Sequence record: PZ715802.1
Strand: one strand, 5' to 3'
DNA from: a phage
Length of the DNA: 49,124 nt
Below are positions 1-49,124 of the stretch, piece by piece. The notes beneath the pieces are model-generated. The model worked only from the letters and a program-made list of their open reading frames with translations. It did no database searches and was not told where the DNA came from. How positions within the stretch are numbered: the first letter of the stretch is position 1; each line of letters begins with the position of its first letter. The position numbers and the translations under genes were made by a program.

Positions 1-28
1 TGTCGAGACAAGCAAAGGAGAATGACAA

Positions 29-340
29 ATGAAAGTATTTACCACTGTTGGATTTAGAACTAACCATTATTACATTGTTAACGATGACGGCGTTATTTTT
101 GCTTCATCAAAACCGTTCTTTGATGGTGATAACTTTTTCAAGAGCGTGTTTCAATCGCCTGGTGTTTTGGTAAGTATGTGCAATCGTGGCTCGTTAGCGC
201 CTTACAACAAAGAGGCTAATGATTTTGTTAATAAGGCAAATGGCATCAAGAGCAAGCGAGAAATGAATAAAAACGTTATCGCCGTTATTGTTTGTGTGGC
301 AATTGCCGTTGGTTCTATTTTCATGGGGGTTTGGTCATGA
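29..340 (+). CDS. hypothetical early protein with C-terminal hydrophobic segment
   Basis: ORF track; ATG at 29 preceded by AAGGAG at 15-20; C-terminal VIAVIVCVAIAVGSIFMGVW looks like a TM helix. Confidence 0.5.
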   Translation: MKVFTTVGFRTNHYYIVNDDGVIFASSKPFFDGDNFFKSVFQSPGVLVSMCNRGSLAPYNKEANDFVNKANGIKSKREMNKNVIAVIVCVAIAVGSIFMGVWS

Positions 341-519
341 CGCTTGATAATAAATTAGAAACGCAAAAGACGATCAACTATTTACTCGCTCTTGCTGATG
401 CACTTGAAAAAGGCGAGGCAGCATTAAATGATGTTAGTATTGAGTCAAGAAATCACGGATGGACTCAGATCGAAGAAACATTAACCGTTCAATATTTTAA
501 GGTGAATAAAGATGGCTAA
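337..519 (+). CDS. hypothetical protein (60 aa)
   Basis: internal ATG of track ORF 292-519; ATGA overlap with stop of upstream gene; GGGGG RBS 8 nt upstream. Confidence 0.4.
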   Translation: MTLDNKLETQKTINYLLALADALEKGEAALNDVSIESRNHGWTQIEETLTVQYFKVNKDG

Positions 520-1087
520 AATTATCATCCTCAATGCGCCTCCTGGTGCTGGCAAAGACACTATCGGCAAGATGATTTCTTTCTATTCACCTGGTGAGCA
601 ATGCCGAATTATTAGCTTTAAAGAACCAATGTTTGATATTGCATTGGCTATCCTTGGCAAAGAGAACTATCAGCGCTTCATGCTGGCTTATGATGACAGA
701 GAGCAGAAAGAAAGGCCGCAAACATTCCTGATGGGTATGTCACCGCGTGAGTTCATGATCTGGATTAGCGAGGATGTAATCAAACCTAAATTCGGCAAGG
801 ATTATTTCGGCGTAAGGTTTAACCAGAAAGTAAAAGAGTGTGATGCTCCTGTTGTTTGCACTGATGGTGGTTTTCCAGATGAAATTATCGCTCTAATCAA
901 TGCTGGTAATGAGGTGAAGCTATGTCGCTTGCATCGCGACGGGTTCACGTTTGCAGGTGATAGCCGCAACTACATTCGAATCAATCCATATTACCAGAAA
1001 AACGGATATAGTGAGCACGATTACTTATTAACCAATGAAAAGCCGATGATTACAGTTAGCGAAATCATTCGCGATCACCTTAAATAG
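512..1087 (+). CDS. P-loop nucleotide kinase (dNMP kinase / polynucleotide kinase-like)
   Basis: N-terminal Walker A LNAPPGAGKDT resembling the start of T4-type dNMP kinases; stop codon is the TAG of the downstream box element. Confidence 0.55.
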   Translation: MAKIIILNAPPGAGKDTIGKMISFYSPGEQCRIISFKEPMFDIALAILGKENYQRFMLAYDDREQKERPQTFLMGMSPREFMIWISEDVIKPKFGKDYFGVRFNQKVKECDAPVVCTDGGFPDEIIALINAGNEVKLCRLHRDGFTFAGDSRNYIRINPYYQKNGYSEHDYLLTNEKPMITVSEIIRDHLK

Positions 1088-1127
1088 CACGAATTGCTAA
1101 AACTTGCGCAAGGCCATTTGTTATAGT
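1085..1127 (+). promoter_or_regulatory. composite box element: TAGCAcgaatTGCTA palindrome, 22 nt with hairpin aggcca/tggcct, TATAGT
   Basis: one of 17 copies; palindrome 1085-1099, -10-like hexamer 1122-1127, about 40 nt upstream of ATG 1168. Confidence 0.6.
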
Positions 1128-1167
1128 GGCCTTATTCAATAGAAGCAACCAATCATAGGAATAAACG

Positions 1168-1365
1168 ATGAAAATTAAATGCACCAAATCAAACACCATG
1201 AATCTGACAGTTGGCGCGATTTACCATATGGAGGAAGGTGTAAACGGGTTTAGCCCAACTGTAACGCATGAATACGGCGGTCACTTCTTCTTAAACGGTA
1301 AAGACGGATTATCTGTAAACGTTGGTTCTTTCGTACTTGCAGAATTTGAGATCGTGGAGGAATAA
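1168..1365 (+). CDS. hypothetical protein
   Basis: ORF track; AGGAA RBS; follows box element. Confidence 0.5.
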   Translation: MKIKCTKSNTMNLTVGAIYHMEEGVNGFSPTVTHEYGGHFFLNGKDGLSVNVGSFVLAEFEIVEE

Positions 1366-1367
1366 AA

Positions 1368-1535
1368 ATGTTCTGGATTCATTCGCCGCAAGGGTTGCTT
1401 TATGTGCCTGGCGTTGAATTGGAAGAACGACGCGACGGCGACACGGTAAACATCATAACGAAGGATTCAAAAGGCCATACTCTTAAAACGTATGTTTTTA
1501 ACACTCCGGTTAAGGTCGAAAAAGATGATTAGATT
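1368..1535 (+). CDS. hypothetical small protein (55 aa), not in ORF track
   Basis: ATG at 1368 with GGAGGA RBS at 1354-1359; fills gap between 1365 and 1525; below the track length cutoff. Confidence 0.35.
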
Positions 1536-1707
1536 TATTGGTTTTGTGGCATTGCTTATGTGCGGAATATTGCTTACTGATAATGACACTTGGCAAAGCG
1601 CTGTTGGCGGTTTACTTATTTTTCTTGCAGGTGGCATGGTTGGCAGTGATGACGCAGCAAACAAGAATAAACTTTCCGATCATTTACGCAGAGAGACAAA
1701 ACGATGA
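1525..1707 (+). CDS. small membrane protein
   Basis: internal ATG of track ORF 1492-1707 with AAGG upstream; hydrophobic FIGFVALLMCGILL and LLIFLAGGMVG segments. Confidence 0.4.
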   Translation: MIRFIGFVALLMCGILLTDNDTWQSAVGGLLIFLAGGMVGSDDAANKNKLSDHLRRETKR

Positions 1708-1949
1708 ATAGAAAAATGCTGGTACGCGCATTCGCAAAGATTGCTAAAAGATGGGGAGATTCTAACAAATCACCTTACACGTTTAGCCGCTACGGTTATA
1801 AAAATGCTCGCGCCTGGGGTCGCTGCATTGCGGATAACTACAACGCCGAAATGCTGGAAGATTTCGCAAAGTGGATTGATACGCCTTTGAAGGATTGGTG
1901 TCAATTTGACTATGACTATTTCGCAGAAGAAGAAATTTCTTGTTGGTAA
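1704..1949 (+). CDS. hypothetical protein
   Basis: ORF track; ATGA overlap with upstream stop. Confidence 0.45.
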   Translation: MNRKMLVRAFAKIAKRWGDSNKSPYTFSRYGYKNARAWGRCIADNYNAEMLEDFAKWIDTPLKDWCQFDYDYFAEEEISCW

Positions 1950-1961
1950 GGAGAATAAAAT

Positions 1962-2459
1962 ATGAAAGCTAAAAATGATTTTTATAACTACCTGACAAAA
2001 GGCCGTGACTATACCGTTTTGAATAGCATAGATACTCTTTACCTTGTTGTTGCTGATAATGGCGTTAGAGTTTGGCTTGATAAAACTCTTTTCGAAAGCG
2101 AGCACCTAAGCAACGCAAAGCGGATCGCAGATGAAGCAAGCGCATTAGCAGAGCGTGAACGAATTCGCGATATAGTATCGGAGCAGGTTAGAAATTCGTG
2201 CTTACCTGGTGGCGATATCTTCAAATCAATGCGCGGTGAAATGACGGTTGGAATTCAAGATCGCGTAATTTCAAAGTCAGTTGATTCTGTAATTGAGAAT
2301 GCGCGATTCAATGCGTTGATTAACTCAGAGCATAACGAATACGTCAAAGTATTAGAGCAACTGCGTGAAGTGCTGCGAGTGCCGGAAGGTGAAAATATAG
2401 TGACTCATGCAAAGGTTGTAAGAGCGTTGGCTGATGCGCTGATTGGTCTGCAAAAATAG
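1962..2459 (+). CDS. hypothetical protein
   Basis: ORF track; AAGGAGA RBS; stop codon TAG is part of the box palindrome at 2457. Confidence 0.55.
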   Translation: MKAKNDFYNYLTKGRDYTVLNSIDTLYLVVADNGVRVWLDKTLFESEHLSNAKRIADEASALAERERIRDIVSEQVRNSCLPGGDIFKSMRGEMTVGIQDRVISKSVDSVIENARFNALINSEHNEYVKVLEQLREVLRVPEGENIVTHAKVVRALADALIGLQK

Positions 2460-2499
2460 CACTTTTTGTTAAAACTTCCGCGAGGGCATTTGTTAAAGT
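2457..2499 (+). promoter_or_regulatory. composite box element: TAGCActtttTGTTA, 22 nt, TAAAGT
   Basis: palindrome 2457-2471; hairpin gagggca/tgtcctc flanks the -10-like hexamer 2494-2499; precedes ATG 2533. Confidence 0.6.
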
Positions 2500-2532
2500 G
2501 TCCTCATTGAAGCGAAACACGGAGATTTAAAA

Positions 2533-2736
2533 ATGGCTGTATACACTGGCAAGATGTTTGAAAGCGAAAACCCGATTTACGGCGGCACTTATGAGCTAAT
2601 CATTGATGAAGATCGCGTTATCCTGGCTGATGACGACAGCGAGGAATATTATGAAGTAGAGGCCGACAAATGGGATAACGACGTTATGTTTCTTGTTGAT
2701 AACAACCGCATCAAGTTTTACGCAGTGGAGGAATAA
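2533..2736 (+). CDS. hypothetical protein
   Basis: ORF track; GGAGA RBS. Confidence 0.5.
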   Translation: MAVYTGKMFESENPIYGGTYELIIDEDRVILADDDSEEYYEVEADKWDNDVMFLVDNNRIKFYAVEE

Positions 2737-2739
2737 CAG

Positions 2740-3045
2740 ATGATCGCAATCAACCTATCAGAAGAACAAGCGAAATCGTTGCTAATGTGCCTTGGTTGGC
2801 GCATGGGCGCAGGTAACGAGGCGGTTGTAAACATCAAAGAGGAAGTAGCAAAAGAGCTTTTTGTGCAGCTTGAGCATAAACTGATGCCAGCCTCAACAAG
2901 CGCGGCGGAGTTGGCAGTATGGCGGCATGAAAACGGCCTTAATGAAATGGACGTTGAGAAGTGGAAACGTAAAAACGGAAAAGCTGTTGATAAGGTTGGT
3001 TTTGTTTGTCGCTGTATTATGGTTAACGTGGAGAAGTTCAGATGA
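2740..3045 (+). CDS. hypothetical protein
   Basis: ORF track; GGAGGA RBS. Confidence 0.5.
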   Translation: MIAINLSEEQAKSLLMCLGWRMGAGNEAVVNIKEEVAKELFVQLEHKLMPASTSAAELAVWRHENGLNEMDVEKWKRKNGKAVDKVGFVCRCIMVNVEKFR

Positions 3046-3380
3046 TTTACATTCACTCTTACGGCGTTGGCAAGTTTGGCAGCAAGCAGATCAGAAACAT
3101 TCACGACACGTTAGAAGAAGCGCAAGCACAGCAACGCGTTTTAGGTGGAGTTGTTCAGGCGTTTGAGTCAGTGGAAAACTTAGAAAGCGAATGGATGGAT
3201 CGCGAGCATATAAAGGATCTGATTGTTGATGAGGTGTCATGCTTGATTGACGATCTCACAACTGACGCGCCAGGGTCGCCGCGAAACTATGAGCCAGGAT
3301 CAACGCAATGGGATTGCTGGAAGGTCAAAACGCTAGGCAACATCCGTGATATTCTGGACGGAAAATTTAACGAAAATTGA
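3042..3380 (+). CDS. hypothetical protein
   Basis: ORF track; ATGA overlap with upstream stop. Confidence 0.5.
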   Translation: MIYIHSYGVGKFGSKQIRNIHDTLEEAQAQQRVLGGVVQAFESVENLESEWMDREHIKDLIVDEVSCLIDDLTTDAPGSPRNYEPGSTQWDCWKVKTLGNIRDILDGKFNEN

Positions 3381-3391
3381 TAGCTTTTAAA

Positions 3392-3426
3392 GCGCCTCAA
3401 TCGCATTATAAGAGGCGCATTTTTTA
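3392..3426 (+). terminator. intrinsic terminator
   Basis: stem gcgcctc/gaggcgc with 13-nt loop followed by TTTTTT. Confidence 0.5.
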
Positions 3427-3439
3427 GGAAGGTGATTCT

Positions 3440-3568
3440 ATGCCTGAATACATAAAACCGTCTCAGTGGTGCGCACAGAAGCAAGAAGAAGCATTAGAGC
3501 GCGGCGACACTGACACAGCATTGCACTACTTTGAAATGTTTCAACTTTGGAAATCAAGAGGACTTTAA
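3440..3568 (+). CDS. hypothetical small protein (42 aa), not in ORF track
   Basis: ATG 3440 with GGAAGGTG RBS; ends 1 nt before next start. Confidence 0.3.
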   Translation: MPEYIKPSQWCAQKQEEALERGDTDTALHYFEMFQLWKSRGL

Positions 3569-3569
3569 A

Positions 3570-3797
3570 ATGTTTGGACTTAATGAGGCTGAATACAACA
3601 TTGTTAAACGTGCTGCAAAAGAGTGCATGAAGGATCTGAAAGTTGAAGTGACAAGCGGCAACAAATACGATCATATTGCGGCTGGCATTATAACCAAACA
3701 TCACGCGCCAATTTCTACCCTAATCACTCGAACAAAGTTTGTATGGCTTGCTGGCTATATAGCTGGTCGATGGGGTAAGCCTGGCGAGTACGAATAA
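3570..3797 (+). CDS. hypothetical protein
   Basis: internal ATG of track ORF 3531-3797 with AAGAGGA RBS. Confidence 0.45.
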   Translation: MFGLNEAEYNIVKRAAKECMKDLKVEVTSGNKYDHIAAGIITKHHAPISTLITRTKFVWLAGYIAGRWGKPGEYE

Positions 3798-3819
3798 TAA
3801 GCACTTGAATCAATGAAGG

Positions 3820-3848
3820 TTGACGGCGTGTTGTCTGATTGGTAGATT
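3820..3848 (+). promoter_or_regulatory. sigma70-like promoter candidate TTGACG-N17-TAGATT
   Basis: hexamers read directly at 3820-3825 and 3843-3848. Confidence 0.3.
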
Positions 3849-3979
3849 AAACGCCGTGAACATAAGAGGCTCAACAGAGCAAAGCTCGGCGCGTTAGCCG
3901 TAAAACTTAATCGGATTGGATCGCAAGGCGAATGACAATCGCGGGAACCGTAACCCGCAACCATTCAGGAGAATTCACG

Positions 3980-4141
3980 ATGCAAAACAAAGAAATCGCA
4001 AAGGTAACAATTATCGTTGAGCGTGACGGAAAGAAAACGCGATACAAGAAGCGATTTAAACAAGGCGAGGCGATGTTAGGCCGGATCGGTGATTTCATGG
4101 TGAAATTGCAAGAGGATAAGCCGGATGAAATTCAAGGTTAA
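3980..4141 (+). CDS. hypothetical protein
   Basis: internal ATG of track ORF 3932-4141 with AGGAGA RBS. Confidence 0.4.
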   Translation: MQNKEIAKVTIIVERDGKKTRYKKRFKQGEAMLGRIGDFMVKLQEDKPDEIQG

Positions 4142-4307
4142 GCTAACCATCCGTCGCATGGGTCGCAATTGCGGATCATGTAAACAAGATTTCGAATGCG
4201 AGGTTGAAGCGCTAAACAATGTTGATGCGGTTCAATGTGCTAAAGTTCTTTCAGGTGCTAACCCTGAAACACACCAATTTTCAATTAATTATGTGAGGGC
4301 TATATAA
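4125..4307 (+). CDS. hypothetical protein with Cys pairs
   Basis: ORF track; GAGGA RBS; CGSC...C...C pattern. Confidence 0.4.
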   Translation: MKFKVKLTIRRMGRNCGSCKQDFECEVEALNNVDAVQCAKVLSGANPETHQFSINYVRAI

Positions 4308-4537
4308 TGCTGATGTTCATTGCGGGTTTTGGTTTTTGTGCGATTATCTGTTTTTTTCTCTATCTTTGTGTTTCGTGGGGTGTACAGCGTTGCGTAAAAG
4401 ACAACGAATTAGTGATCGCCATTTACGAAAATAAAACTGATAAATGGAAGATTACTAAAAACTTTGAAAAGATTGCTGATGAAATTGCATTCCGTCGCAA
4501 GTTTGGCAAGCCTGGAAGCATTAAGTACATCGACTGA
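4307..4537 (+). CDS. small membrane protein
   Basis: ORF track; N-terminal hydrophobic MLMFIAGFGFCAIICFFLYLCV. Confidence 0.45.
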   Translation: MLMFIAGFGFCAIICFFLYLCVSWGVQRCVKDNELVIAIYENKTDKWKITKNFEKIADEIAFRRKFGKPGSIKYID

Positions 4538-4554: not shown

Positions 4555-4578
4555 AACCCGCCTTGAGCGGGTTTTTTT
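4555..4578 (+). terminator. intrinsic terminator at end of early gene block
   Basis: stem acccgc/gcgggt, loop cttga, then TTTTTTT. Confidence 0.6.
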
Positions 4579-4627
4579 GTGTCTGCAATTTAGCTATAAT
4601 CATGCCTCAACAATGGAGGATTCTATT

Positions 4628-5152
4628 ATGGCAAAAAAAACAGATGCGCCAGCGGCTGAAAGCCTGAATTTTAAGAAACTATGGAATAAGCAATATTCAG
4701 ATCTCATTGGCACTAAACTTGATAAGCGCACAACGCTAACGCCAGAGCAGGTTATGAATTTGATTGTTCAGTATTTTGAATGGGCTGAATCAAACGCTAT
4801 AAAAGCAGGTGAAACGGCAACATTTCAGGGGCGTGTTTATCAGGATACGATTCACAAGCCGCGCATTTTTACATGGGAAGCGTTGAAGTTGTTTTGTGGT
4901 TTTTCCGGCACAGCACTAGCGAAATGGAAATTAAAGCCTGGCTATGATGTTGTAATTGAATTTGCTGAATCTGTAATTAAAGAGCAGAAATACCAGTTAG
5001 CGGCAAACGGAATGATTAACAGCACCATGATCGCAAAAGAGCTTGGCATTGATAAGGGCGACACGTTCAATATTAGCGCTAACGCTGAAACGGAAGTTAA
5101 CACGGAAGAAGCAATGAAAAACGCCGTCGCAAGCGTTCTAAGCAAAATTTAA
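4628..5152 (+). CDS. terminase small subunit (by position)
   Basis: internal ATG of track ORF 4577-5152 with GGAGGA RBS; immediately upstream of large terminase. Confidence 0.5.
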   Translation: MAKKTDAPAAESLNFKKLWNKQYSDLIGTKLDKRTTLTPEQVMNLIVQYFEWAESNAIKAGETATFQGRVYQDTIHKPRIFTWEALKLFCGFSGTALAKWKLKPGYDVVIEFAESVIKEQKYQLAANGMINSTMIAKELGIDKGDTFNISANAETEVNTEEAMKNAVASVLSKI

Positions 5153-5154: not shown

Positions 5155-6735
5155 GTGAATGCTATGTTGATATGGGAAGATTTAAGCAAGCTGGAAAAGC
5201 TGGCTATTAAAGAATTGAGTACGCACGATTTTGATACTTTCGTTAAAATCTGGTTCCCGATCCAGCAAGGTGAAAAATGGATTCCTAACTGGCATCACCT
5301 TTATATCGCAAGAGCGATTGATGAAATTATTGAAGGTACACGGAAAGATACGATCTTTAATGTAACTCCAGGCTCAGGTAAGACGGAATTACTTTCTATC
5401 CATTTCCCGCCGTACTCTTATTTAAAACTTAATAAGGTGCGGAACCTAAATATTTCATTTGCCGATACGCTTGTTAAACGAAACAGTAAGCGTGTGCGTG
5501 ATCTGGTTAATTCTCGAGAATGGCAAGAGCTTTTCCCTGCAAAAACTGGTACAAGCAAAGATGATGAATTTCAGGTTTTAAATGACGCTGGCAAAGTTCG
5601 CCTGGAAATGATTAGTAAATCAATGGGCGGTCAGATTACTGGTAGCCGTGGCGGTTACATTACGCCTGGCGTTTATTCAGGTTGCGTAACGCTTGACGAT
5701 CCAGAAAAGCCAGATGATATGTTTTCGAAGGTAAAACGTGAGCGCGGTCAAATGATCGCAAAGAACACCATTCGATCACGTCGCGCACATTCAGAAACGC
5801 CAATTATCGTTATCCAACAGCGTTTACATGCGCAGGATATGACATGGTTTTTAATGAATGGCGGCATGGGTATAGAGTTTGATCAGATCTCTATTCCGGC
5901 GATGGTTACAGAAGAATACGGGAAATCGCTTCCTGATTGGTTGCAGCCGCACTTTGAAAAGGATGTGCTTTCGTCTGAATACATCGTTATTGATGGCGTG
6001 AAGTATTATTCTTTCTGGCCTAGCAAGGAAAGCATTCATGATCTTAAAGCGCTACGCGATGCGGATTTGTACACGTTCCTTTCTCAGTATCAGCAAGAGC
6101 CAATTGCTCTTGGCGGTAACGCAATTAACGTTGGATGGTTCCAGTATTACGGAACCGGAGAAAAATCAACGATGCCAAAACCGGATCGCTTTGATTATAC
6201 GTTTATTACAGCAGATACCGCTCAGAAAGAAGGTGAGCTAAACGACTACAGCGTTTTATGTTATTGGGGCATGTTCAAAGGCCGTATATATTTTATTGAC
6301 GGTGTGCGCGGAAAATGGGAAGCGCCAATGTTAGAAACGCAGTTTAAAGCGTTTGTTAAACAGTGCTGGAACCGTAACAAAGAATGCGGAAACTTGCGTA
6401 AAATTTACGTGGAAGATAAAGCGAGCGGTACAGGTTTGATCCAGAATTGCCGCAAAGCATTTCCGATAGAAATTACTCCAGTGCAACGCGATAAAGACAA
6501 AGTAACGCGCTGCATGGACGCACAGCCAGTGATCAAGAATGGTTATGTTGTATTGCCGGAATCGCATCACATGCTTGCTGAATTTCTGGCAGAGGCGGCG
6601 GCATTCACTTATGATGATAGCCATCCTCATGATGATATTATGGATAACCTTTTTGATGCGGTTAATATTGAGCTTAACCTTGCTGATAATGCGGTTGATA
6701 GAATGAAGCGTTTAGCTGGATTAGCGAAGCGTTAA
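5155..6735 (+). CDS. terminase large subunit
   Basis: 526 aa; Walker A TPGSGKT; C-terminal nuclease-like region; position before portal; track start is GTG at 5155, alternative ATG at 5164. Confidence 0.85.
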   Translation: MNAMLIWEDLSKLEKLAIKELSTHDFDTFVKIWFPIQQGEKWIPNWHHLYIARAIDEIIEGTRKDTIFNVTPGSGKTELLSIHFPPYSYLKLNKVRNLNISFADTLVKRNSKRVRDLVNSREWQELFPAKTGTSKDDEFQVLNDAGKVRLEMISKSMGGQITGSRGGYITPGVYSGCVTLDDPEKPDDMFSKVKRERGQMIAKNTIRSRRAHSETPIIVIQQRLHAQDMTWFLMNGGMGIEFDQISIPAMVTEEYGKSLPDWLQPHFEKDVLSSEYIVIDGVKYYSFWPSKESIHDLKALRDADLYTFLSQYQQEPIALGGNAINVGWFQYYGTGEKSTMPKPDRFDYTFITADTAQKEGELNDYSVLCYWGMFKGRIYFIDGVRGKWEAPMLETQFKAFVKQCWNRNKECGNLRKIYVEDKASGTGLIQNCRKAFPIEITPVQRDKDKVTRCMDAQPVIKNGYVVLPESHHMLAEFLAEAAAFTYDDSHPHDDIMDNLFDAVNIELNLADNAVDRMKRLAGLAKR

Positions 6736-24741: not shown

Positions 24742-24799
24742 AAATATCTATATAATACATACACTTAGAGTTTAATTATTATTATATATATCTATTTGT
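24742..24799 (+). repeat. AT-rich repeat copy A (AAATATCTATATAATACAT ... TAATTATTATTATATAT)
   Basis: direct sequence match to second copy at 45514-45570. Confidence 0.6.
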
Positions 24800-25024
24800 A
24801 TCCTTCTTGTTTCCATTGTTCTATATGGTTTGTGGTGGTTGTGTGTTTTGTATTGGTTGATGGTTATATATCACATGGTATGTATTTATATATGGTATGC
24901 GGCTTAAATGCGTGAACAATGGAACACTAAAACAACAACTAGTAAAATCATAAACTTACGATGTGATTTTGTTGTCAACGCTAGTTGTAAACGTATGCAA
25001 AACAAAAAGAACGCTTAAATGGTA

Positions 25025-27708: not shown

Positions 27709-30072
27709 TTACTTAGCAATCTGAACAAACATTGCTTGCATTTCCGCAATTGCGGCTTTCATTTCTGCGATCTCGTTTTTCAACTCTTTAATTTCCTCCT
27801 GTTGTTTCTCTATTTTTTCTTTCTGCTCTTTGAATGCGTTAACCAAAAGAGCTACAACGCCATTATAGTTAATGCCTTTGATTGCCTCGCCTTTTGGATC
27901 TAGCTGACCATCATTATTCAAAGAATGAACCGCTTCCGGCAAAACCCTTTCAACATCTTGTGCGATCAATCCAGCCTCAATACTATAAACGCTGTTTTCA
28001 TCTTCAATTAGATTGTTGCGCTTGTAGTAAGTATAACCAGTTAGATAATCAATTTTGTCGGATGCCGTTTCGATCTCTTTTAGATGTGCTTTCATCCTTA
28101 TGTCAGATGTGCTGATCCATTGGTTACAACTTGCATTTCCGGCGTGATTAAATATAAATTGCGCTCCCTTAACATAAAGATGTGTTTCAGCACCGCCACT
28201 CGACCAGTTAACGGCATCCATTCCAGTAATCCAAGAATCACCCCAATGAACAACCTTAAATACGTTAACGGCTGCGTCTTTTGCTGTAATCTCGCAAAGC
28301 ATTCCAGCACCACGATCACGCCAGGCATCAAAAGCGCCTTCCTGAATTTGACCGCCAATCATGGCATTTGCCCCACCAGACCTAATGCCAGCAACCCTAA
28401 TGCCGTTTGCATCGTCACTAATAGGCCATATACTCAATAACCCGTACATGTTAAAATCATTAGCTTGGCATGTTGCAATATTTCTACCGTTGCACATTAC
28501 TTGCAAAATGCCATCACCGCCCCACTTAAAACCTGTGTCAGTGTCACCAATTACTAACGCATTACTTCCAAGCGCATTACCAATACCCCTACCGATAACT
28601 ATTGAATTGTAATTTAGCGCGTTACCGCTTTCATCAAATTGATAATAGTTTGTATCACCTCCTTCCCTAGTGACTTGTATTGTTGATTTTGCTAATCCAC
28701 CTTGAATTTCGTTGTAAATTCTTGAGTATGAAAGCTGTACATTTTCTGGACTTTTGTTTATTAAATAAAGAATTCCAGAGTTTGCAGAGTTTTTTTCTGT
28801 TAGGCTTATCCCTCTAAAAACAGGAATGTCAGTTTCACCAATGCCAAAGTTATTCCTTGCTTGGCTTACGTTTGCTGCACCTGTGCCGCCCTGTAGAATT
28901 CCAAGAGGAATATACTGTTGCGATGCGATATTCCAGTAACCCCAACCATCGTTACCAACTGTAAGGTATTTGATCTTATCCGGCGACCGAATAAACGTTT
29001 CACCATCGCCCTGATCAAATCGGTCAATCTGGAAATTAATTCTTGCTTGCGTTACGTTTTCCGCACCAGTACCGCCAGCACCAACAGAAAGAGCGGATGT
29101 GCTGTTATCGCTATTTCTTGCAACTCGCCACTCGCCGTTGTTTGCGATCCGTAATTCATAAGTCCATGCAGGGTTACGAAATGAGTTATAATCACCTGGA
29201 TTTTGACCCTTAACTGAATTAACAGCCTCAACTTTCAGCGCCTCCCTTGCTAAATCTTTATTAGCAAGATCATTAAGATTCTGATCCTTATGCAGAAGGT
29301 TTTCAGGGTTAACTTGTTGTGCCCATTGGCGAGCTTCATCACGCGCAGTTTCAGCGCCTTGTTTAGCGTTTCCGGCTGCAACCTTTGATTGTTCAGCCAG
29401 ATCACGAGCTTCCACGGCTTCATCACGAGCGTTGAAAGCCTCCTGCTTAATGGCTTCCGTTTCTCTAACAGCAGCGTCTTTAATGCCTTGCGTTTGCGTC
29501 TTTATTGCGTCAGTGTCTGCCTTAATCTGATTGGTTTCATAAACAGCAGCATCCTTAATCCGTTGAGTTTCTGCAATCGCAGTATCTTTAATTTGCGTAG
29601 TCTCAGAAACAGCGGCATCCTTAATAGCTTGCGTGTCGTTTTTTAATTGCTCAGTTGCGGCGCGATCTGCATCCGTTTTTTGTGCGGAAGACTCAGCGCG
29701 AGCAACAAGATCCTGTAATGTTTTAAGGTCAAAGTTTTTGAAGAATTCAATTGCTTCCTCAATAACCGTTTCTTTACTTTGGTAATATCTCAGCGTTTCC
29801 GCAACATCTTGCGCCATTCCATCTACCGTTAAAGAGTCATTCAACAGGATCACATAATTTCCGTTTTCTACTGGCTCGCCGTCAGTCTGGATCGCTTTCA
29901 TTTCCGTGTCGCTTACAATATCGCTAATCACAGCCAATTTAAGAGGCGATGTGAGAAATACGATTGTTGCGCCAGTGCGGATAAGAGAAAGCGGCTCACG
30001 CCATTTTGTGCCAGTACCAGTGATAACGCCTTGTGCGTCCATTGCAGCCGTACCAGTGCGATATAAAGCCAT
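27709..30072 (-). CDS. side tail fibre with C-terminal intramolecular chaperone domain
   Basis: 787 aa; internal tandem IKDAAV.ET repeats; C-terminus DYLTGYTYY...IEAGLIAQDVERVLPEAV typical of self-cleaving chaperone domains. Confidence 0.8.
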   Translation of the reverse strand: MALYRTGTAAMDAQGVITGTGTKWREPLSLIRTGATIVFLTSPLKLAVISDIVSDTEMKAIQTDGEPVENGNYVILLNDSLTVDGMAQDVAETLRYYQSKETVIEEAIEFFKNFDLKTLQDLVARAESSAQKTDADRAATEQLKNDTQAIKDAAVSETTQIKDTAIAETQRIKDAAVYETNQIKADTDAIKTQTQGIKDAAVRETEAIKQEAFNARDEAVEARDLAEQSKVAAGNAKQGAETARDEARQWAQQVNPENLLHKDQNLNDLANKDLAREALKVEAVNSVKGQNPGDYNSFRNPAWTYELRIANNGEWRVARNSDNSTSALSVGAGGTGAENVTQARINFQIDRFDQGDGETFIRSPDKIKYLTVGNDGWGYWNIASQQYIPLGILQGGTGAANVSQARNNFGIGETDIPVFRGISLTEKNSANSGILYLINKSPENVQLSYSRIYNEIQGGLAKSTIQVTREGGDTNYYQFDESGNALNYNSIVIGRGIGNALGSNALVIGDTDTGFKWGGDGILQVMCNGRNIATCQANDFNMYGLLSIWPISDDANGIRVAGIRSGGANAMIGGQIQEGAFDAWRDRGAGMLCEITAKDAAVNVFKVVHWGDSWITGMDAVNWSSGGAETHLYVKGAQFIFNHAGNASCNQWISTSDIRMKAHLKEIETASDKIDYLTGYTYYKRNNLIEDENSVYSIEAGLIAQDVERVLPEAVHSLNNDGQLDPKGEAIKGINYNGVVALLVNAFKEQKEKIEKQQEEIKELKNEIAEMKAAIAEMQAMFVQIAK

Positions 30073-31211: not shown

Positions 31212-31820
31212 TTAGCAATCAGTGCTATCGACGGAAATCACAACGCGTTTCTTCTGATTGGCTTCCTTTGCTTTGCGCCGTTCTTCTTTCGCCTTGTCGC
31301 GTTCAGCTTTGCGCCGCGCTTTCTCCTTCTCGCGTTCTTCTGGAGTCATAGACCGTAACGGATCGTAAGGCCGGACAAATCCCCTTGCTTCCGCTTCCTC
31401 TTTGGTTACAAATCGCATTAGCTTTCTGTTGCTGCAACGATTCTCTAATGGCTTGCCGTTATTATCAAATTTGATATCTGGACGGCAATATGAAGCGCGG
31501 AAGCCGTTAAAACCTTTGCGTCGGTAATCTTTCTGGATCAGTTCAGCGCCTTTAGTTGAAATCATGCCGCGCTCTTTCCATCCCCATACTGTTTTAAGGT
31601 TAACGCCAATTTCACGCGCCAGGGCAGCGCAACCGCCGTAAGCGTTGACAACTTCATCAAGCCGCGCTTTTAATCCGGCTCTTACTTCTTCCTTTAATAC
31701 AAGATAACCGCTAACAGGTGCGCGACGTTTACGATCTTTACCACGTCTTACGCCGTTGTTACCATTGATTGTGCGTTTGTCGATTTCGCCAGTTGATGCA
31801 GCAATTTTGATTTCGCTCAT
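31212..31820 (-). CDS. HTH DNA-binding protein (Cro/YdaS-like) with basic C-terminal tail
   Basis: ORF track; helix-turn-helix-like CAALAREIGVNLKTVWGWK; Lys/Arg/Glu-rich C-terminus; weak RBS. Confidence 0.55.
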   Translation of the reverse strand: MSEIKIAASTGEIDKRTINGNNGVRRGKDRKRRAPVSGYLVLKEEVRAGLKARLDEVVNAYGGCAALAREIGVNLKTVWGWKERGMISTKGAELIQKDYRRKGFNGFRASYCRPDIKFDNNGKPLENRCSNRKLMRFVTKEEAEARGFVRPYDPLRSMTPEEREKEKARRKAERDKAKEERRKAKEANQKKRVVISVDSTDC

Positions 31821-31831: not shown

Positions 31832-31873
31832 TAGCACTTTTTGCTAAAAAACTTGATTAAGTTTGTGTATGAT
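31832..31873 (+). promoter_or_regulatory. composite box element: TAGCActtttTGCTA, 21 nt, TATGAT
   Basis: palindrome 31832-31846 upstream of helicase ATG 31909. Confidence 0.55.
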
Positions 31874-31897
31874 ATGCCGCAAATGGCATTTAGTCAA
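31869..31897 (-). promoter_or_regulatory. sigma70-like promoter TTGACT-N17-TATCAT for HTH gene, face-to-face with box element
   Basis: read on minus strand; its -10 (31869-31874) overlaps the + strand -10 (31868-31873). Confidence 0.45.
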
Positions 31898-43128: not shown

Positions 43129-43280
43129 TTTACGGCGATAAACGGATATCCTGTTAAATCTGCATTTCTATAACGTGCAGACCTAACCCAACAGCCGCCT
43201 TTGCTCATAATTAAAGCGTTTTTATGGCGAATATTCACGCGGTAAATTCTTCCGGTTTTTATGTTTTTGAAGTAGGTCAT
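43113..43280 (-). CDS. hypothetical small protein (55 aa), not in ORF track
   Basis: ATGA overlap with stop of 43277-43510; reads through the box and stops within it. Confidence 0.3.
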   Translation of the reverse strand: MTYFKNIKTGRIYRVNIRHKNALIMSKGGCWVRSARYRNADLTGYPFIAVNSTNC

Positions 43281-44611: not shown

Positions 44612-44642
44612 CGTTAATCTCCTGATTGGTTTCGATGGGGTA

Positions 44643-44685
44643 ACTATATCAAGATACCCCGATCCGGTTTTAACAAAAAATGCTA
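44643..44685 (-). promoter_or_regulatory. composite box element (minus): TAGCAtttttTGTTA, 22 nt, TATAGT
   Basis: palindrome 44671-44685. Confidence 0.55.
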
Positions 44686-44686
44686 T

Positions 44687-45121
44687 TTACAGCCATTCGC
44701 CGGAAACAATGAAATCAGTGAAATCGTCATGATCCAAAATGCTGTGATAGCCAGTGCAATAATCATTTTTAACCATGTTACCACGCAAACGCACATAATC
44801 AGCCTTTCGATCCGTAATCCAACGAATAAAGCGAGCGTTACGTTGTGGTATCGTTCCGGCGTAAGCCTCTTTGAATCCAATGTGTGCGATGAATGCCACA
44901 AAGCGGATTTGCAAGCCTGGATTGTCTTTCTTTGCCTCGTTAACCAGGTCGCGGAAGTTTTCACGCGTTGGCTTGACCGGAACCAATTCGCCTAACTCGA
45001 TCATGCGGTTGAAGTCTGAAACACTGGAAGATGATTCCATAAACAGCCCATCGCTACCAAACATCACAACGCCGCTTTCGATGAAGTAAGTGTGTCCGTT
45101 GTATTTGTTGGTGTATTTCAT
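44687..45121 (-). CDS. hypothetical protein
   Basis: internal ATG of track ORF 44687-45157 with GAGGA RBS; first gene after the minus-strand box at 45153-45195. Confidence 0.5.
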   Translation of the reverse strand: MKYTNKYNGHTYFIESGVVMFGSDGLFMESSSSVSDFNRMIELGELVPVKPTRENFRDLVNEAKKDNPGLQIRFVAFIAHIGFKEAYAGTIPQRNARFIRWITDRKADYVRLRGNMVKNDYCTGYHSILDHDDFTDFIVSGEWL

Positions 45122-45152
45122 CGTGAATTCCTCATTTCGTTTCGATGAAGTA

Positions 45153-45195
45153 ATCATAGCAATTCGCGTCTGATTGGTTTTAACAAAAAGTGCTA
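45153..45195 (-). promoter_or_regulatory. composite box element (minus): TAGCActtttTGTTA, 22 nt, TATGAT
   Basis: palindrome 45181-45195; first promoter of the minus-strand block. Confidence 0.55.
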
Positions 45196-45205
45196 TTCAT
45201 GCAAT

Positions 45206-45233
45206 AGACCGATTGGTCTAGACCGTTTGGTCT
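45206..45233. promoter_or_regulatory. operator-like tandem 14-bp palindromic repeats AGACCGATTGGTCT / AGACCGTTTGGTCT
   Basis: two adjacent copies differing at one base; includes perfect 10-bp palindrome GGTCTAGACC. Confidence 0.45.
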
Positions 45234-45269
45234 AATGAACGCATCGTTTTGTGTATCGAACGCATTCAT

Positions 45270-45297
45270 GATCCTGTTACGTGATCGTTATATGATC
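45270..45297. repeat. cluster of three GATC sites within 28 bp
   Basis: GATC at 45270, 45283, 45294 inside a non-coding region; the phage encodes a Dam-type methyltransferase. Confidence 0.4.
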
Positions 45298-45513
45298 AGA
45301 TGATGATTGATGTGTGAGATTTTGTGATTGAAATTGATTTGATTTGATTAGATTTGAGTAGTGAGTGAGTAGAAATAATCACACCTTGCCGATCAGTGAA
45401 AACTTTTCCCGCAAAACATCACTCCATGCTCCGCGCGTTTCGTTTTGTTCCTCGTTGTTTTCCGCCAGACCTTCCGCAGTTTAGCGCAACGTTACACAAC
45501 ACGTATAACAACA

Positions 45514-45570
45514 AAATATCTATATAATACATTGAAAAGTAAGATAATTATTATTATATATCTATATTGT
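45514..45570 (+). repeat. AT-rich repeat copy B
   Basis: matches copy A at 24742-24799. Confidence 0.6.
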
Positions 45571-45784
45571 TATATAACTTGTTTTGCTTGTTTCTTGTGA
45601 TATTGATACCCATTTGCGGATTGATAGAGTATAAAATTATAAGATAGGTGCTCTTATTTATTATGGGTGATGCTGATTTTTTGCGAAATAGTGTAACGAT
45701 TTAGAACACCGTTGATTTGAAAGGATAAATTTTCAAATCCTGTTATATTGCGTGATGTTTTTGTTGCCTAATCAAAAATAACAC

Positions 45785-45812
45785 TTGACGCATAAGCCAG
45801 GTTTGCTAAGAT
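45785..45812 (+). promoter_or_regulatory. sigma70-like promoter TTGACG-N16-TAAGAT
   Basis: hexamers at 45785-45790 and 45807-45812, about 35 nt upstream of ATG 45847. Confidence 0.45.
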
Positions 45813-45846
45813 TTCTGCATCGAGCAACAACGGAGGATAACCAATC

Positions 45847-46134
45847 ATGGTAAGGGGCAAAATCGTAAAGCGTGACCTATCCATAGTTGATGCAACGCCA
45901 GAAGATGCAACCAAAGATATCATGCGCCTAATGTACATAGCGCGGATAATTGAGGCGGCAAAACCAAACAGGCTGTATTACATCGACGTTAAGGCATCCG
46001 GTCGAGATGTTAACTCATTGCGCCAGGCAATAAACACGATTGCGAAAGAGGATCGCAGAACCATTAAAACAATAACCACTGATAACGGCTATATCGGCTT
46101 TGTTATCATCGACGTTAAAGAAGCGTTTGTGTAA
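45847..46134 (+). CDS. hypothetical protein
   Basis: ORF track; GGAGGA RBS. Confidence 0.5.
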   Translation: MVRGKIVKRDLSIVDATPEDATKDIMRLMYIARIIEAAKPNRLYYIDVKASGRDVNSLRQAINTIAKEDRRTIKTITTDNGYIGFVIIDVKEAFV

Positions 46135-46145
46135 AGAGGTGAATC

Positions 46146-46589
46146 ATGGAACAAATGACAAGTAAAGAGTTTTGCGATAAATTGCGCGAAGCTGCAAGAG
46201 CCGCTGCAACAGGTGAAGTGATCAAGTTGCCAGTTGCCTATATCACAATGCACGTTCAGGCAGAGGACGCAAAGAAACTAAATTCATCATACATCCGCAC
46301 GATCATGAATCGCGTACCGGAAGTAAAAGAGGTTGGATCTGTAAGTGTCAAGAAAAAGACAAGTGATGACGGCGCGGAGTATTACGAGATCGCAATCAAC
46401 CGCGACACAAAACGCCGCATAGTGACAACTAATGACCTTCCGGCAATCAAAGAGCATGAGCGCGAAAAGCTGGTTGAAAAGATTATGCGCATATCGCCAG
46501 ACTTCTCACACCTGGACGATGAAAAGGCACTTGTTGCAATGCGAGCGGTTGCCACGTTCAAAGATCTGATTAAGGAGATCTCAAAGTGA
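46146..46589 (+). CDS. hypothetical protein
   Basis: ORF track; AGAGGTG RBS. Confidence 0.5.
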   Translation: MEQMTSKEFCDKLREAARAAATGEVIKLPVAYITMHVQAEDAKKLNSSYIRTIMNRVPEVKEVGSVSVKKKTSDDGAEYYEIAINRDTKRRIVTTNDLPAIKEHEREKLVEKIMRISPDFSHLDDEKALVAMRAVATFKDLIKEISK

Positions 46590-46822
46590 AAGCATTCGCC
46601 TTTGTCGCTGCAATGTGGTGTGTCGTTATTGATAGTCCTGGCGTGGCGCTGGTTGTTCTTGGCTTGATATTGTTGGGGGCGTTTGATGAATAAGAAACTT
46701 TTAGATCATGCCGTGGTGTTCTTTATCGCTGCTGCTGGATTTTCGCTGTTGTCAATTGCTTTTTCAATCCTTGCTTTTGCTGTGTCAATGCTGAAATGAC
46801 GGATTACATCCTGATTGGTAAA

Positions 46823-46865
46823 TAGCACTTTTTGTTAAAACTCGATTGGGGTAGTTTGGCATAAT
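46823..46865 (+). promoter_or_regulatory. composite box element: TAGCActtttTGTTA, 22 nt, CATAAT
   Basis: palindrome 46823-46837; spacer hairpin ggggta/tacccc. Confidence 0.6.
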
Positions 46866-46897
46866 TACCCCATCGAAACGAAACGAGGAAAACACAA

Positions 46898-47056
46898 TGA
46901 CTACATTAATCACCTGGGAACACGAAGCAAGCCAGCCAGTAACCCGCGAGTTTGAAACTCTTAGCCAGGCTTATTTGCTGGCGGCGAATGGCGGTTATTA
47001 CAAGGCTCAAGTCATTGATGAAATGGGGGTGATTGTTTATGAGTTTAAAGCGTGAT
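46898..47056 (+). CDS. hypothetical small protein (52 aa), not in ORF track
   Basis: ATG 46898 with ACGAGGAAA RBS immediately downstream of box. Confidence 0.35.
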
Positions 47057-47239
47057 GTAGCCTACCAGAGTGCATACGGTACGCGCCAATACAAATGGGA
47101 CGGCTTGCACGTTTGGACGCGCGGATTCCCTGGCGAAATCTGGCGGCTGGCGGCTGGCTGGCCTCAGCCTCAGATGTCAAAGCGCGATCTTGAATATTAT
47201 GTGAACAAAGGCGAATTTAAGGAGTGGGATAATGTTTGA
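47039..47239 (+). CDS. hypothetical protein
   Basis: first ATG of track ORF 47033-47239, which begins with TTG. Confidence 0.4.
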   Translation: MSLKRDVAYQSAYGTRQYKWDGLHVWTRGFPGEIWRLAAGWPQPQMSKRDLEYYVNKGEFKEWDNV

Positions 47240-47489
47240 ACTGAAACGCGTAACTGTTGAGATCCTGAATGATGGCTCTTACGATGGAATGAAACACTTA
47301 ACCTTCCCGATCCGCATTGAGAATTGCATTGATTACGGTATTGAAGTTGGCATGGTTGACGTTCCTCTTGATGCACTTATCGCGGCTGGCTATGACAAAG
47401 AGAAAGGCCAATGCGCCGATATACCGGATAGCTATGAAAGCGACACACATTTTCCGTTCACCTATGGCGAATGCCGGATTGTTGATTGA
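47232..47489 (+). CDS. hypothetical protein
   Basis: ORF track; AAGGAG RBS. Confidence 0.5.
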   Translation: MFELKRVTVEILNDGSYDGMKHLTFPIRIENCIDYGIEVGMVDVPLDALIAAGYDKEKGQCADIPDSYESDTHFPFTYGECRIVD

Positions 47490-47563
47490 GGTTATAAAAT
47501 GAGCAGTTGGCACAATGAGCACGTAATGCAATTCTACCGCCACAGAATAAAGAAAATGATCAA

Positions 47564-47606
47564 TAGCACGAATTGCTAAAACAGAATCCTGGGGTTGCGG
47601 TATAGT
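47564..47606 (+). promoter_or_regulatory. composite box element: TAGCAcgaatTGCTA, 22 nt, TATAGT
   Basis: palindrome 47564-47578; spacer hairpin ggggtt/aacccc. Confidence 0.6.
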
Positions 47607-47638
47607 AACCCCACACCAAACGAAAGAAGGAAATCAAA

Positions 47639-47962
47639 ATGGAATTAGCACGTAACGCAATTTATGGCTTACACCTCAAAGGCGGTAAAGGTTCAACCTA
47701 TGTTCACCTTTTTCATGTGAATGAGCGCAACCAGGTTGATATTGCGATGTATACAGATCAGTTTCTGGTAAAAGGTGAAATGGGCGATAGGTTTAATCCG
47801 CAATTCGTCGAACAAGATCCAACGTATAGCCATGACCATTGGGTTTGTGATGATTACTATAATTTCATCATGGTTGATAGTCACGTTACGGACACGCGGA
47901 AAATAACAGTTAGCGACTATAAGCGCATGACTCGAAAAGTATTGAAGCATAAAGCGCAATAG
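47639..47962 (+). CDS. hypothetical protein
   Basis: ORF track; AAGGAA RBS; stop is TAG of the next box. Confidence 0.5.
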   Translation: MELARNAIYGLHLKGGKGSTYVHLFHVNERNQVDIAMYTDQFLVKGEMGDRFNPQFVEQDPTYSHDHWVCDDYYNFIMVDSHVTDTRKITVSDYKRMTRKVLKHKAQ

Positions 47963-48002
47963 CACAAAATGTTAAGCGGTCATGTGTCCTGATGGGTATA
48001 AT
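47960..48002 (+). promoter_or_regulatory. composite box element, variant: TAGCAcaaaaTGTTA, 22 nt, TATAAT
   Basis: palindrome 47960-47974; spacer hairpin gcggtcat/atgaccgc. Confidence 0.5.
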
Positions 48003-48034
48003 GACCGCATCAACCAACCAAAGGAGAAGTAAAA

Positions 48035-48142
48035 ATGTCTAAAGAGTCTATCAAGCAGTTTCTGAAATACGGTTCTATGATTGTGCTCGCTACCGTTGTG
48101 CTGGCTGGCATCGCGTATAGCATTATTGAGTTTGCGGGGTAA
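48035..48142 (+). CDS. small membrane peptide (35 aa), not in ORF track
   Basis: ATG with AAAGGAGAAG RBS; hydrophobic MIVLATVVLAGIAYSII. Confidence 0.3.
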   Translation: MSKESIKQFLKYGSMIVLATVVLAGIAYSIIEFAG

Positions 48143-48145
48143 TTG

Positions 48146-48709
48146 ATGTTTACGATCAACTTGTGGGGAAGGGATTATGTTAATCCCTATGTTGCGACAA
48201 AACAGCGTTTCGTTATTTTCGACCTAGACGGCACATTGTCAAATGGTGAGCACCGCTTGCACCTGTTGCCAACGGTTGATTTGCATCTTACTGAAAGCTG
48301 GAGTGAGTTTAATCGCGCCGCAAAGGATGATTCACCATTCAGCAATAACATTTCCGTGTGCAACGCCATGTTTGACGCCGGATACCTGGTTATCATCCTA
48401 ACAGGACGTAGTGATGAAGTTGAAGCAGAAACGCGAGCCTGGTTAGCTGAAAACGGCGTTTCTTTCGATTGGCTAATTATGCGCCGCGCGGAGGACAACC
48501 GGAAAGATACAGTAATCAAAGAGGAAGTTTTACGGACTATCGGACTAGATCGCATTGTCGCATGTTGGGATGACTCACCAAACGTTATTGCACACCTGCG
48601 CGGCCTGGGCTTGACTGTTTACCAGGTAATTGACTACGGCGAGCAGTTACACGATCACTTAAAATCTCACGGCGTGGAGGAATTGAGCGATGACAGCAAA
48701 GATAATTGA
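48146..48709 (+). CDS. HAD-superfamily phosphatase
   Basis: track ORF 48143-48709 begins with TTG; ATG at 48146; DxDGT motif in FVIFDLDGTL. Confidence 0.55.
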   Translation: MFTINLWGRDYVNPYVATKQRFVIFDLDGTLSNGEHRLHLLPTVDLHLTESWSEFNRAAKDDSPFSNNISVCNAMFDAGYLVIILTGRSDEVEAETRAWLAENGVSFDWLIMRRAEDNRKDTVIKEEVLRTIGLDRIVACWDDSPNVIAHLRGLGLTVYQVIDYGEQLHDHLKSHGVEELSDDSKDN

Positions 48710-48878
48710 AGATCGGCATGGTGATAACGTGCTTATTTACATCGAAGGGAAATCGGTGTGGATTGACTGCAAATACGAGGATGACACACATTTGCAGTTT
48801 CGCGGAATCTTTGACAAGAAAGGCGCGTTAGAGTTAGCAGAACACATCAAGCGGCTTGCGGAAGAATTACCGGAATAG
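48690..48878 (+). CDS. hypothetical protein
   Basis: ORF track; overlaps end of upstream gene. Confidence 0.4.
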   Translation: MTAKIIEDRHGDNVLIYIEGKSVWIDCKYEDDTHLQFRGIFDKKGALELAEHIKRLAEELPE

Positions 48879-49074
48879 AGTATTTATTATGTTGACTTTT
48901 ATCTTGATCGCTATCGTTTTAATTCTGTATGTTTGCGGCGCTTTCCTGATGCGAGCGCTACTAAAAGAGGCTGACGCTGATGACAAGGATAGTTGGAAGC
49001 CGATTGTTTTGTGGCCTGGCTATATCATCGTGCCAATTTACGAGCTAATCCGCGATGGTGAGTTTAAATGGTAA
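48856..49074 (+). CDS. small membrane protein (start uncertain, 48856 or 48890)
   Basis: ORF track; hydrophobic MLTFILIAIVLILYVCGAFLM. Confidence 0.4.
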   Translation: MRKNYRNRVFIMLTFILIAIVLILYVCGAFLMRALLKEADADDKDSWKPIVLWPGYIIVPIYELIRDGEFKW

Positions 49075-49117
49075 ATAGCACTTTTTGCTAAAACTTGCTA
49101 AGGCACATTTGATAAAG
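49075..49117 (+). promoter_or_regulatory. composite box element: TAGCActtttTGCTA, 22 nt, TAAAGT; no downstream gene inside the window
   Basis: palindrome 49075-49089; spacer hairpin aggcaca/tgtgcct; would drive the gene at 29 if the ends are joined. Confidence 0.55.
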
Positions 49118-49124
49118 TGTGCCT

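Follow-up and report, generated by a model that had tools for sequence, protein, structure and literature searches.

The ends of a Tlsvirus genome record are contiguous and divide a putative promoter unit of the T1-like box repeat family

We examined the two ends of sequence record PZ715802.1, a 49,124-nt phage genome (the window; coordinates below are window coordinates unless another genome is named), between which a repeat unit of the T1-like phages is divided. The last gene of the record (48889-49074, plus strand) encodes a protein of 61 aa that, by the list of open reading frames (ORFs), PHROG 9755 and the annotation of phages U136B and TLS, is a homologue of U136B_014 and TLS gp11. Its TAA stop codon (49072-49074) overlaps the first two bases of a 21-nt direct repeat (49073-49093, plus strand; AAATAGCACTTTTTGCTAAAA), a T1-like box with the sequence of TLS repeat DR4. 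Farther along lies an extended -10 element (49110-49118, plus strand) made up of TG at 49110-49111, one base, and TAAAGT at 49113-49118, as read from an in-register table of 18 such units; the hexamer begins 19 nt past the box core, at the spacing seen in the other units, and 6 nt of the record remain after it. RNAfold places over this region an inverted repeat (49100-49124, plus strand) whose arms, AAGGCACA at 49100-49107 and TGTGCCT at 49118-49124, are closed by the T at position 1, at the other end of the record.

The window's final bases read ...GGTAAATAGCACTTTTTGCTAAAACTTGCTAAGGCACATTTGATAAAGTGTGCCT and its opening bases TGTCGAGACAAGCAAAGGAGAATGACAAATG..., and positions 1-28 (plus strand) form, by sequence and unit geometry, the leader half of the split unit, with the Shine-Dalgarno sequence AAGGAG at 15-20. 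The same geometry would put a sigma-70 transcription start at positions 1-2, 7 nt past the -10 hexamer. The first gene (29-340, plus strand; ATG 29-31) encodes a protein of 103 aa assigned to PHROG 22783 (function not known) and is the positional homologue of U136B_015 and of TLS gp12, which carries the annotation 'membrane protein'. An initial sequence-only reading of the window had proposed that a promoter element is severed from this gene by the linearization point, and the features it relied on are present: the box at the window end is complete (49075-49093, ATAGCACTTTTTGCTAAAA, an exact match to the box core) and is followed by TAAAGT, and no canonical sigma-70 promoter was found in positions 1-28 or anywhere else ahead of the gene. 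It had further likened the joined leader to that of an intact internal unit consisting of box, hairpin, TAAAGT, leader and ATG 2533 (2454-2535, plus strand). Joining end to start indeed gives 78 nt from box start to ATG, compared with 77 nt in the internal unit (2456-2535), and the two agree in 65 of 86 aligned columns, with box and -10 hexamer matching well and the leader moderately (25/38). The span it gave for the element, 49075-49117, covers the box correctly but ends one base short of the end of the -10 hexamer.

The sequence formed by joining the two ends is internal and unbroken in U136B, phSE-2, phSE-5, PCST1 and Stevie, where ...TAAAGTGTGCCT runs directly into TGTCGAGACAAGC... with no base lost or duplicated, and an alignment of these five phages shows the 26 nt around the join (ATAAAGTGTGCCT followed by TGTCGAGACAAGC) to be identical. 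A 593-nt join query, composed of the last 246 and the first 347 bases of the window, matched U136B as a single piece (97.3% identity, U136B 3775-4366) and was covered over its full length in four more records, namely phSE-2 (two accessions), phSE-5 and PCST1; none of the best 40 of the 49 matching records was split at the join position. Since an exact-protein look-up with the first-gene protein returned no record, we used the last-gene protein to find further contigs across metagenome, Logan and NCBI data. The exact 61-aa protein was present on 24 contigs, and in all eight independent contigs that were fetched and aligned, from metagenomes or isolates, a single high-scoring segment pair (HSP) crossed the join, with the start of the next gene 78-79 nt past the last-gene stop.

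Whole-genome BLAST showed the window to be a rotation of U136B by about 4 kb, with window position 1 at U136B 4022 and position 49124 at U136B 4021, and to be collinear with U136B over its entire record, including the two ends; the final base of the U136B record corresponds to window position 45316. In phSE-5 the two window ends likewise fall on adjacent bases, 25066 and 25067. No terminal redundancy was found inside the window, the first and last 5 kb having only box copies in common. Because the ends are contiguous and have no repeat in common beyond those copies, the window is a complete, non-redundant circular representation of the genome, without unique terminal sequence.

Nucleotide similarity and gene order place the genome in the genus Tlsvirus (Drexlerviridae, Tempevirinae), among the T1-like siphoviruses. 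Each half of the window is 93-96% identical over 90-98% of its length to phSE-5, U136B, phSE-2, Sazh and TLS, with the closest match in the phage collection at about 96%, and the genus threshold of the International Committee on Taxonomy of Viruses (ICTV) lies at about 70% nucleotide similarity. Gene order is that of U136B, the length of 49,124 nt falls inside the 48.1-50.5 kb range of the relatives, and gene order, 21-nt repeats and terminase type are all common to the window and the Tlsvirus members TLS, U136B, phSE-2, phSE-5, Stevie and Sazh. What sets the window apart is chiefly the opening point of its record, which lies 3.8 kb downstream of that of TLS and U136B and 4.6 kb upstream of that of Stevie, together with a few mosaic replacements relative to U136B, seen as segments left uncovered in the whole-genome BLAST.

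The window's small-terminase gene terS (4577-5152, plus strand; PHROG 606) is P22 gp3-like (PF16677 GP3_package, E = 6e-9, above the cut-off), and it is followed by the large-terminase gene terL (5155-6735, plus strand; PHROG 38), whose Pfam match is only to the generic nuclease domain PF17289 Terminase_6C. In TLS, packaging has been found to proceed by the headful mechanism from a pac site, on the evidence of a submolar pac-HindIII fragment and diffuse bands of 5 and 4 kb, with each of 3-4 packaging rounds adding about 1 kb of redundancy; pac itself was placed at AGATTT by restriction mapping and by its likeness to P22 pac (PMC11447400). For Stevie a headful-type TerL and a 'partially permuted' genome have been reported (PMC4319613), and U136B is described as circularly permuted, a 127-bp assembly overlap having been trimmed and the record reopened to match the reference phage TLS (PMC8104045). 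The TLS record begins with the AGATTT assigned as pac, and its bases 1-78 are 100% identical to a 78-nt stretch of the window (45317-45394, plus strand, by alignment to the TLS record) that lies 3,808 nt upstream of the record break, so that the packaging start region of this phage is likely to be near 45317. Like headful (pac) genomes such as those of P22 and T1, the window has a P22 gp3-like terS and behaves as a circle with contiguous ends and no repeat; it differs from them in that its presumed redundancy and packaging direction are borrowed from TLS.

Within the pac-homologous stretch, 45317-45360 is a run of short repeats of the GATT(T) type (AGATTTTGTGATTGAAATTGATTTGATTTGATTAGATTTGAG). 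The stretch is kept at 100% relative to TLS, and both of its flanks are divergent or replaced relative to U136B.

Taken together, these data indicate that the genome is headful-packaged, that its circular map was opened arbitrarily to give the record and that the split unit is intact in the phage, a reading to which we assign a probability of about 0.93. Under this reading, headful packaging from pac would fill the virions of the Tlsvirus group, and because of it the virion DNA would be terminally redundant and partly circularly permuted and would assemble as a circle. The record would then have been opened at an arbitrary base inside a 78-nt promoter and leader unit between the homologues of TLS gp11 and gp12, a cut after which the record would open (5' end) with leader, ribosome-binding site and gene and close (3' end) with box, hairpin and -10 element. 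Position 1 is not at a gene start; the break is best seen as an arbitrary point and not as a terminus. The sequence-only reading had likewise taken the window for a whole genome, opened at an arbitrary or terminally redundant point; its observation proved real, and its interpretation is supported by the uninterrupted join in five relatives and by the rotation relative to U136B. As stated, the finding combines a known property of T1-like phage records with a known repeat. Its value lies mostly in the handling of the record: the window is best read as a circle, neither of its ends should be taken for a biological terminus, and gene 29-340 has a control region, which is placed at the other end of the record.

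Some points weigh against this reading. The physical ends of this phage are predicted here from sequence comparison, and the pac assignment in TLS, which combined restriction mapping with P22 pac resemblance, is itself approximate (PMC11447400). Moreover, the break falls exactly on the predicted +1, 7 nt past the -10 hexamer, and costs the 8-bp hairpin stem its last base pair; this is most simply a coincidence, if an unproven one.

The strongest competing account of the break is that it is not arbitrary, and that the assembler stopped at this point on meeting a late headful end or a step in coverage where the terminally redundant zone ends. Position 1 does lie 3.8 kb downstream of the pac homologue, and with TLS ends shifting by about 1 kb per round over 3-4 rounds, late ends could fall nearby. 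Headful ends are however diffuse rather than base-exact, as the heterogeneous 4-5 kb bands of TLS show, and assemblies of circular-mapping genomes break at arbitrary k-mers, as in U136B with its trimmed overlap, so that we regard this account as very unlikely. Still less probable is that positions 1 and 49124 are defined physical ends, either cos ends or an exact direct terminal repeat, which would make the terminal box an orphan. The record is written as linear from this point and an inverted repeat ends at the break, as this account would have it, yet the join is internal and base-identical in five relatives, is crossed by the eight independent contigs and is left unsplit in the best 40 of the 49 matching records, terS is P22 gp3-like, no terminal repeat exists in the window, and TLS is experimentally headful from the site homologous to 45317. 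The idea of an incomplete contig, with sequence missing between end and start, has nothing in its favour and is highly improbable, as the joined ends reproduce the sequence of the relatives exactly with no base missing or extra, the joined box-to-ATG distance of 78 nt is inside the family range, and the window is collinear with all of U136B at a length within the genus range.

The terminal box belongs to a family that recurs throughout the window. Its core, ATAGCACNNNTTGNTAAAA, gave 15 matches at up to 3 mismatches to the longer pattern of the sequence-only reading, compared with 0 in 100 shuffles, and a relaxed search returned 22 hits in the window, 18 of which are intergenic or gene-end units aimed at the next gene. 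All 18 are co-oriented with the downstream gene at a fixed spacing, the distance from box start to start codon being 71-84 nt (median 75.5). The terminal box is intergenic, co-oriented and about 76 nt before a start codon only once the ends are joined, which brings it to 78 nt from ATG 29. Such repeats are known from related phages. TLS has 18 intergenic 21-nt repeats (DR1-18) with the consensus aaATAGCACnnnTTGnTAAAA, which the terminal box at 49073-49093 matches exactly, and among which DR4 lies at TLS 4059-4079 (aaatagcactttttgctaaaa; TLS Supplementary Table S1). Stevie has 16 copies of a 22-bp version with the consensus VWATAGCAYKWWTTGYTAAAAV, and T1 has 20 copies (PMC4319613); the homologous 22 bp are annotated as repeat_region in the Stevie record. 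The window units resemble these published T1-like repeats in sequence, intergenic position, orientation with transcription and a distance of about 76 nt from start codons, and what our analysis adds to them is an extended -10 fixed 19 nt downstream, the lack of a -35, and an overlapping hairpin with compensating changes.

The TAAATAG with which the box starts contains, or abuts, the stop codon of the upstream gene at the units 1084, 2456, 26137, 34289, 35674, 38872(-), 41036(-), 41716(-), 43129(-), 44686(-) and 49075, and at 43129(-) the stop lies within CTAAAA. Upstream translation and transcription would therefore run straight into the next unit, in a very compact layout.

All 18 units, aligned in register, follow one plan. 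The 19-nt box core is separated by 19 variable nucleotides from a TATAAT-like hexamer, after which a leader of about 30 nt, containing a Shine-Dalgarno sequence, runs to the start codon. Among the hexamers are TATAGT, CATAAT, TAAAGT and TATTAT; about half of the units have TGn ahead of the hexamer, and the terminal copy, TGA-TAAAGT, has this extended form. We compared them with an external set obtained by scanning the box pattern in IMG/VR, which gave 148 unique units from contigs with at least two boxes, the downstream sequence being unfiltered. At offset 38 the hexamer of these units was again mostly TATAGT, CATAAT, TAAAGT or TATTAT, with G at -14 in 132/148 (89%) and TG in 82/148, and the mode of the distance to the start codon was 75-78 nt. 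A -10 hexamer with A at its second and T at its sixth position was found at the fixed offset in 99% of 119 external units, compared with 46% of single-box loci, the latter being a mix of unrelated contigs and some T1-like ones. The best -35 match in the 148 units averaged 2.3 of 6 positions.

No canonical sigma-70 promoter, with a TTGACA-like -35 and 16-18 nt spacing, was found at the units, and a scan of both ends of the window gave no excess over shuffles. A consensus scanner misses the units because they offer no usable -35, the TTGYTA of the box being 22 nt from the -10; for that reason TTGYTA was rejected as a -35, and an alternative -10 at 17 nt from it was rejected as well, since the second-position A is not conserved there. 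A sigma-54 promoter reads TGGCAC-N5-TTGC, with GG and GC 10 nt apart. We rejected this reading too, as the TAGCAC-N3-TTGY (TTGC) of the box has AG in place of GG and a spacing 2 nt too short.

UP elements are A/T-rich and extend from about -59 to -38, to which the box core, at about -49 to -31 and with an invariant ATAGCAC containing G and C, is a poor fit in both position and composition. The T4 MotA box ends about 12 nt before the -10, compared with 19 nt for the window box. Neither reading fits the positions well. The units resemble extended -10 (TGnTATAAT) sigma-70 promoters, and activator-dependent promoters without a -35 such as the T4 middle promoters, in having TG or G at -15/-14, a good -10 and no usable -35, for which the conserved upstream box could substitute.

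Judged by this anatomy, the unit is probably an extended -10 promoter of the sigma-70 kind, with a transcript that would begin at window positions 1-3. The roughly 18 near-identical units of the genome each have a conserved 21-nt box at about -51 to -31, an extended -10 but no -35, a leader of about 30 nt and, in most cases, a hairpin that overlaps the spacer or the -10; the host sigma-70 RNA polymerase would start about 7 nt past the -10. The box may help in recruitment through the alpha subunit C-terminal domain (alpha-CTD) or through a sequence-specific factor, and because its ATAGCAC is invariant, a sequence-specific protein seems favoured over alpha-CTD alone. The 'promoter element' of the sequence-only reading is to that extent a reasonable reading of the box unit. 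Two considerations tell against assigning promoter function: the TLS and Stevie papers leave the function of the repeat open, suggesting a stoperator, an enhancer site or an UP element, and no mapped transcription starts in Drexlerviridae or T1-like phages were found in the literature searched.

We also weighed whether the box unit is not a promoter at all and serves instead as a stoperator or repressor site, or as the upstream part of a terminator, with the genes read through from a few canonical promoters. The stoperator idea was raised in the papers on TLS and Stevie, the units go undetected in the canonical sigma-70 scan, the TLS annotation counts two of the hairpins among its terminators (T57 and T62), and with the upstream stop in or abutting the box in at least 11/18 units, read-through RNA necessarily enters the unit. 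We nevertheless think it unlikely, given the -10 at a fixed offset with its conserved A and T in nearly all external units, the prevalence of G at -14, the co-orientation of 18/18 units with the next gene at a constant distance, and the units 45196(-) and 31831(+), which head divergent gene blocks unreachable by upstream read-through. The promoter and the stoperator or terminator roles are not mutually exclusive.

The plus-strand box unit 31831 stands face to face with a canonical minus-strand promoter (31868-31897, TTGACT-N17-TATCAT), the -10 hexamers of the two lying on the same bases. The latter is identical to P57 of TLS, one of the three sigma-70-like promoters predicted in that phage, where only three are predictable. 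It precedes the gene of a 202-aa Cro/YdaS-like helix-turn-helix (HTH) protein (31212-31820, minus strand; PHROG 2856, 'transcriptional regulator'), which is a candidate for the box-binding factor.

The units further contain hairpins that bear the marks of selection on pairing. In the terminal unit the hairpin AAGGCACA/TGTGCCTT has a predicted energy of -17.0 kcal/mol (z = -5.2 relative to shuffles; RNAfold, offsets 15-55), with the -10 in its loop and 3' arm, and is the one that loses its last base pair to the record break. Significantly better folding than shuffles was obtained for 14/18 window units (mean z of -3.2), with a mean minimum free energy (MFE) of -12.3 kcal/mol compared with -5.1 for random 41-mers; the strong hairpins are those of units 1084, 2456, 26137, 31228(-), 34289, 35674, 38872(-), 41036(-), 41716(-), 44686(-), 46822, 47563, 47959 and 49075. 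The stem sequences differ between units, and the hairpin lies either in the spacer, ending at the -10, or encloses the -10. Among 170 unique external segments, 67% fold at -10 kcal/mol or below and the sense strand folds better than the antisense, with a P value for this strand bias that is inflated because the segments are related. Where both partners of a predicted pair have changed within any of 28 clusters of near-orthologous units, pairing is preserved in 24 cases and broken in 4. Apart from the two hairpins listed in TLS as terminators T57 and T62, the unit hairpins are unmentioned in the TLS and Stevie papers.

The 3' arm of the hairpin ends at about +1, and the transcript of the unit itself would therefore lack the 5' arm, leaving upstream read-through RNA as the only RNA able to form the hairpin. 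The hairpin would accordingly be expected to act on upstream transcripts, through termination or 3'-end formation, and not on the transcript of its own unit, a role that fits both the geometry and the sense-strand bias.

At the terminal unit we also observed that in many relatives the alignment ends 4-11 nt inside the first gene or is confined to the 90-nt unit (97-98% identity), and that the gene after the shared unit encodes 103, 98, 86 or 84 aa in different contigs; this observation covers one unit only (49073-49124 plus 1-40, loci L128-L135). The unit of about 90 nt thus looks like a mosaic or recombination boundary, such as the promoter-early stem-loop (PeSL) cassettes form in T4-like phages, and these borders suggest recombination at the units. 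A PeSL combines a stem-loop with a promoter, recurs between small early genes and delimits genes that have been swapped (PMC4122927), and T4-like PeSLs have been treated as terminator/promoter cassettes (PMC2839356). The window units are likewise stem-loop and promoter composites repeated between small genes, 14/18 with a significant hairpin, and here too the promoter unit is kept at high identity while the flanking genes differ. In contrast to the PeSL, the T1-like unit has a strongly conserved upstream box, and its hairpin lies inside or over the promoter, at the spacer or the -10, and not in front of it. No sequence relationship exists between the two, and with T4-like myovirus cassettes on one side and a Drexlerviridae siphovirus on the other, the resemblance is functional only.

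A broader proposal, which we put forward tentatively, is that the units form a T1-like promoter class needing a conserved factor at about -49 to -31, with the Cro-like HTH protein encoded at 31212-31820 as a candidate, and that the hairpin acts only on read-through RNA. The units might then be self-insulating terminator/promoter cassettes that double as recombination joints, a siphovirus counterpart of the PeSLs of T4. What can be said of the published T1-like repeats of 'function unknown' is that they have all the parts of extended -10 promoters that lack a -35, along with a hairpin under selection, and that they appear to mark mosaic borders, which bears on the organization of transcription in phages almost without canonical promoters. 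It is this anatomy of the family, with its promoter, hairpin and mosaic features, that merits separate study, and it may be more useful than the contiguity of the record ends.

Several further features of the window and of its matches were noted. GenBank record OR786094.1 ('Streptococcus phage MBBL140'), for which S. agalactiae is the listed host, covers 95% of the first window half at 93% identity, and Campylobacter jejuni is the host given for about 20 further records that match the window; the host labels of all these records look doubtful. The homologue of U136B_022, annotated 'putative GntR-family transcriptional regulator' (1962-2459), has no Pfam domain at E <= 0.01 and belongs to a PHROG of unknown function, and the GntR-family annotation is therefore unsupported here. 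The two largest non-coding regions of the window each have a copy of a very A+T-rich 48-nt repeat (77% identity between the copies), at 24773-24820 after the tail-fibre gene and at 45545-45592 beside the pac-like region; a role of the repeat in an origin or a promoter cluster is possible. Finally, four copies of a repeat of about 50 nt (29447-29637, minus strand) lie inside ORF 27709-30072, the second tail-fibre gene (787 aa), the last three at a 33-nt spacing that corresponds to an 11-residue periodicity.

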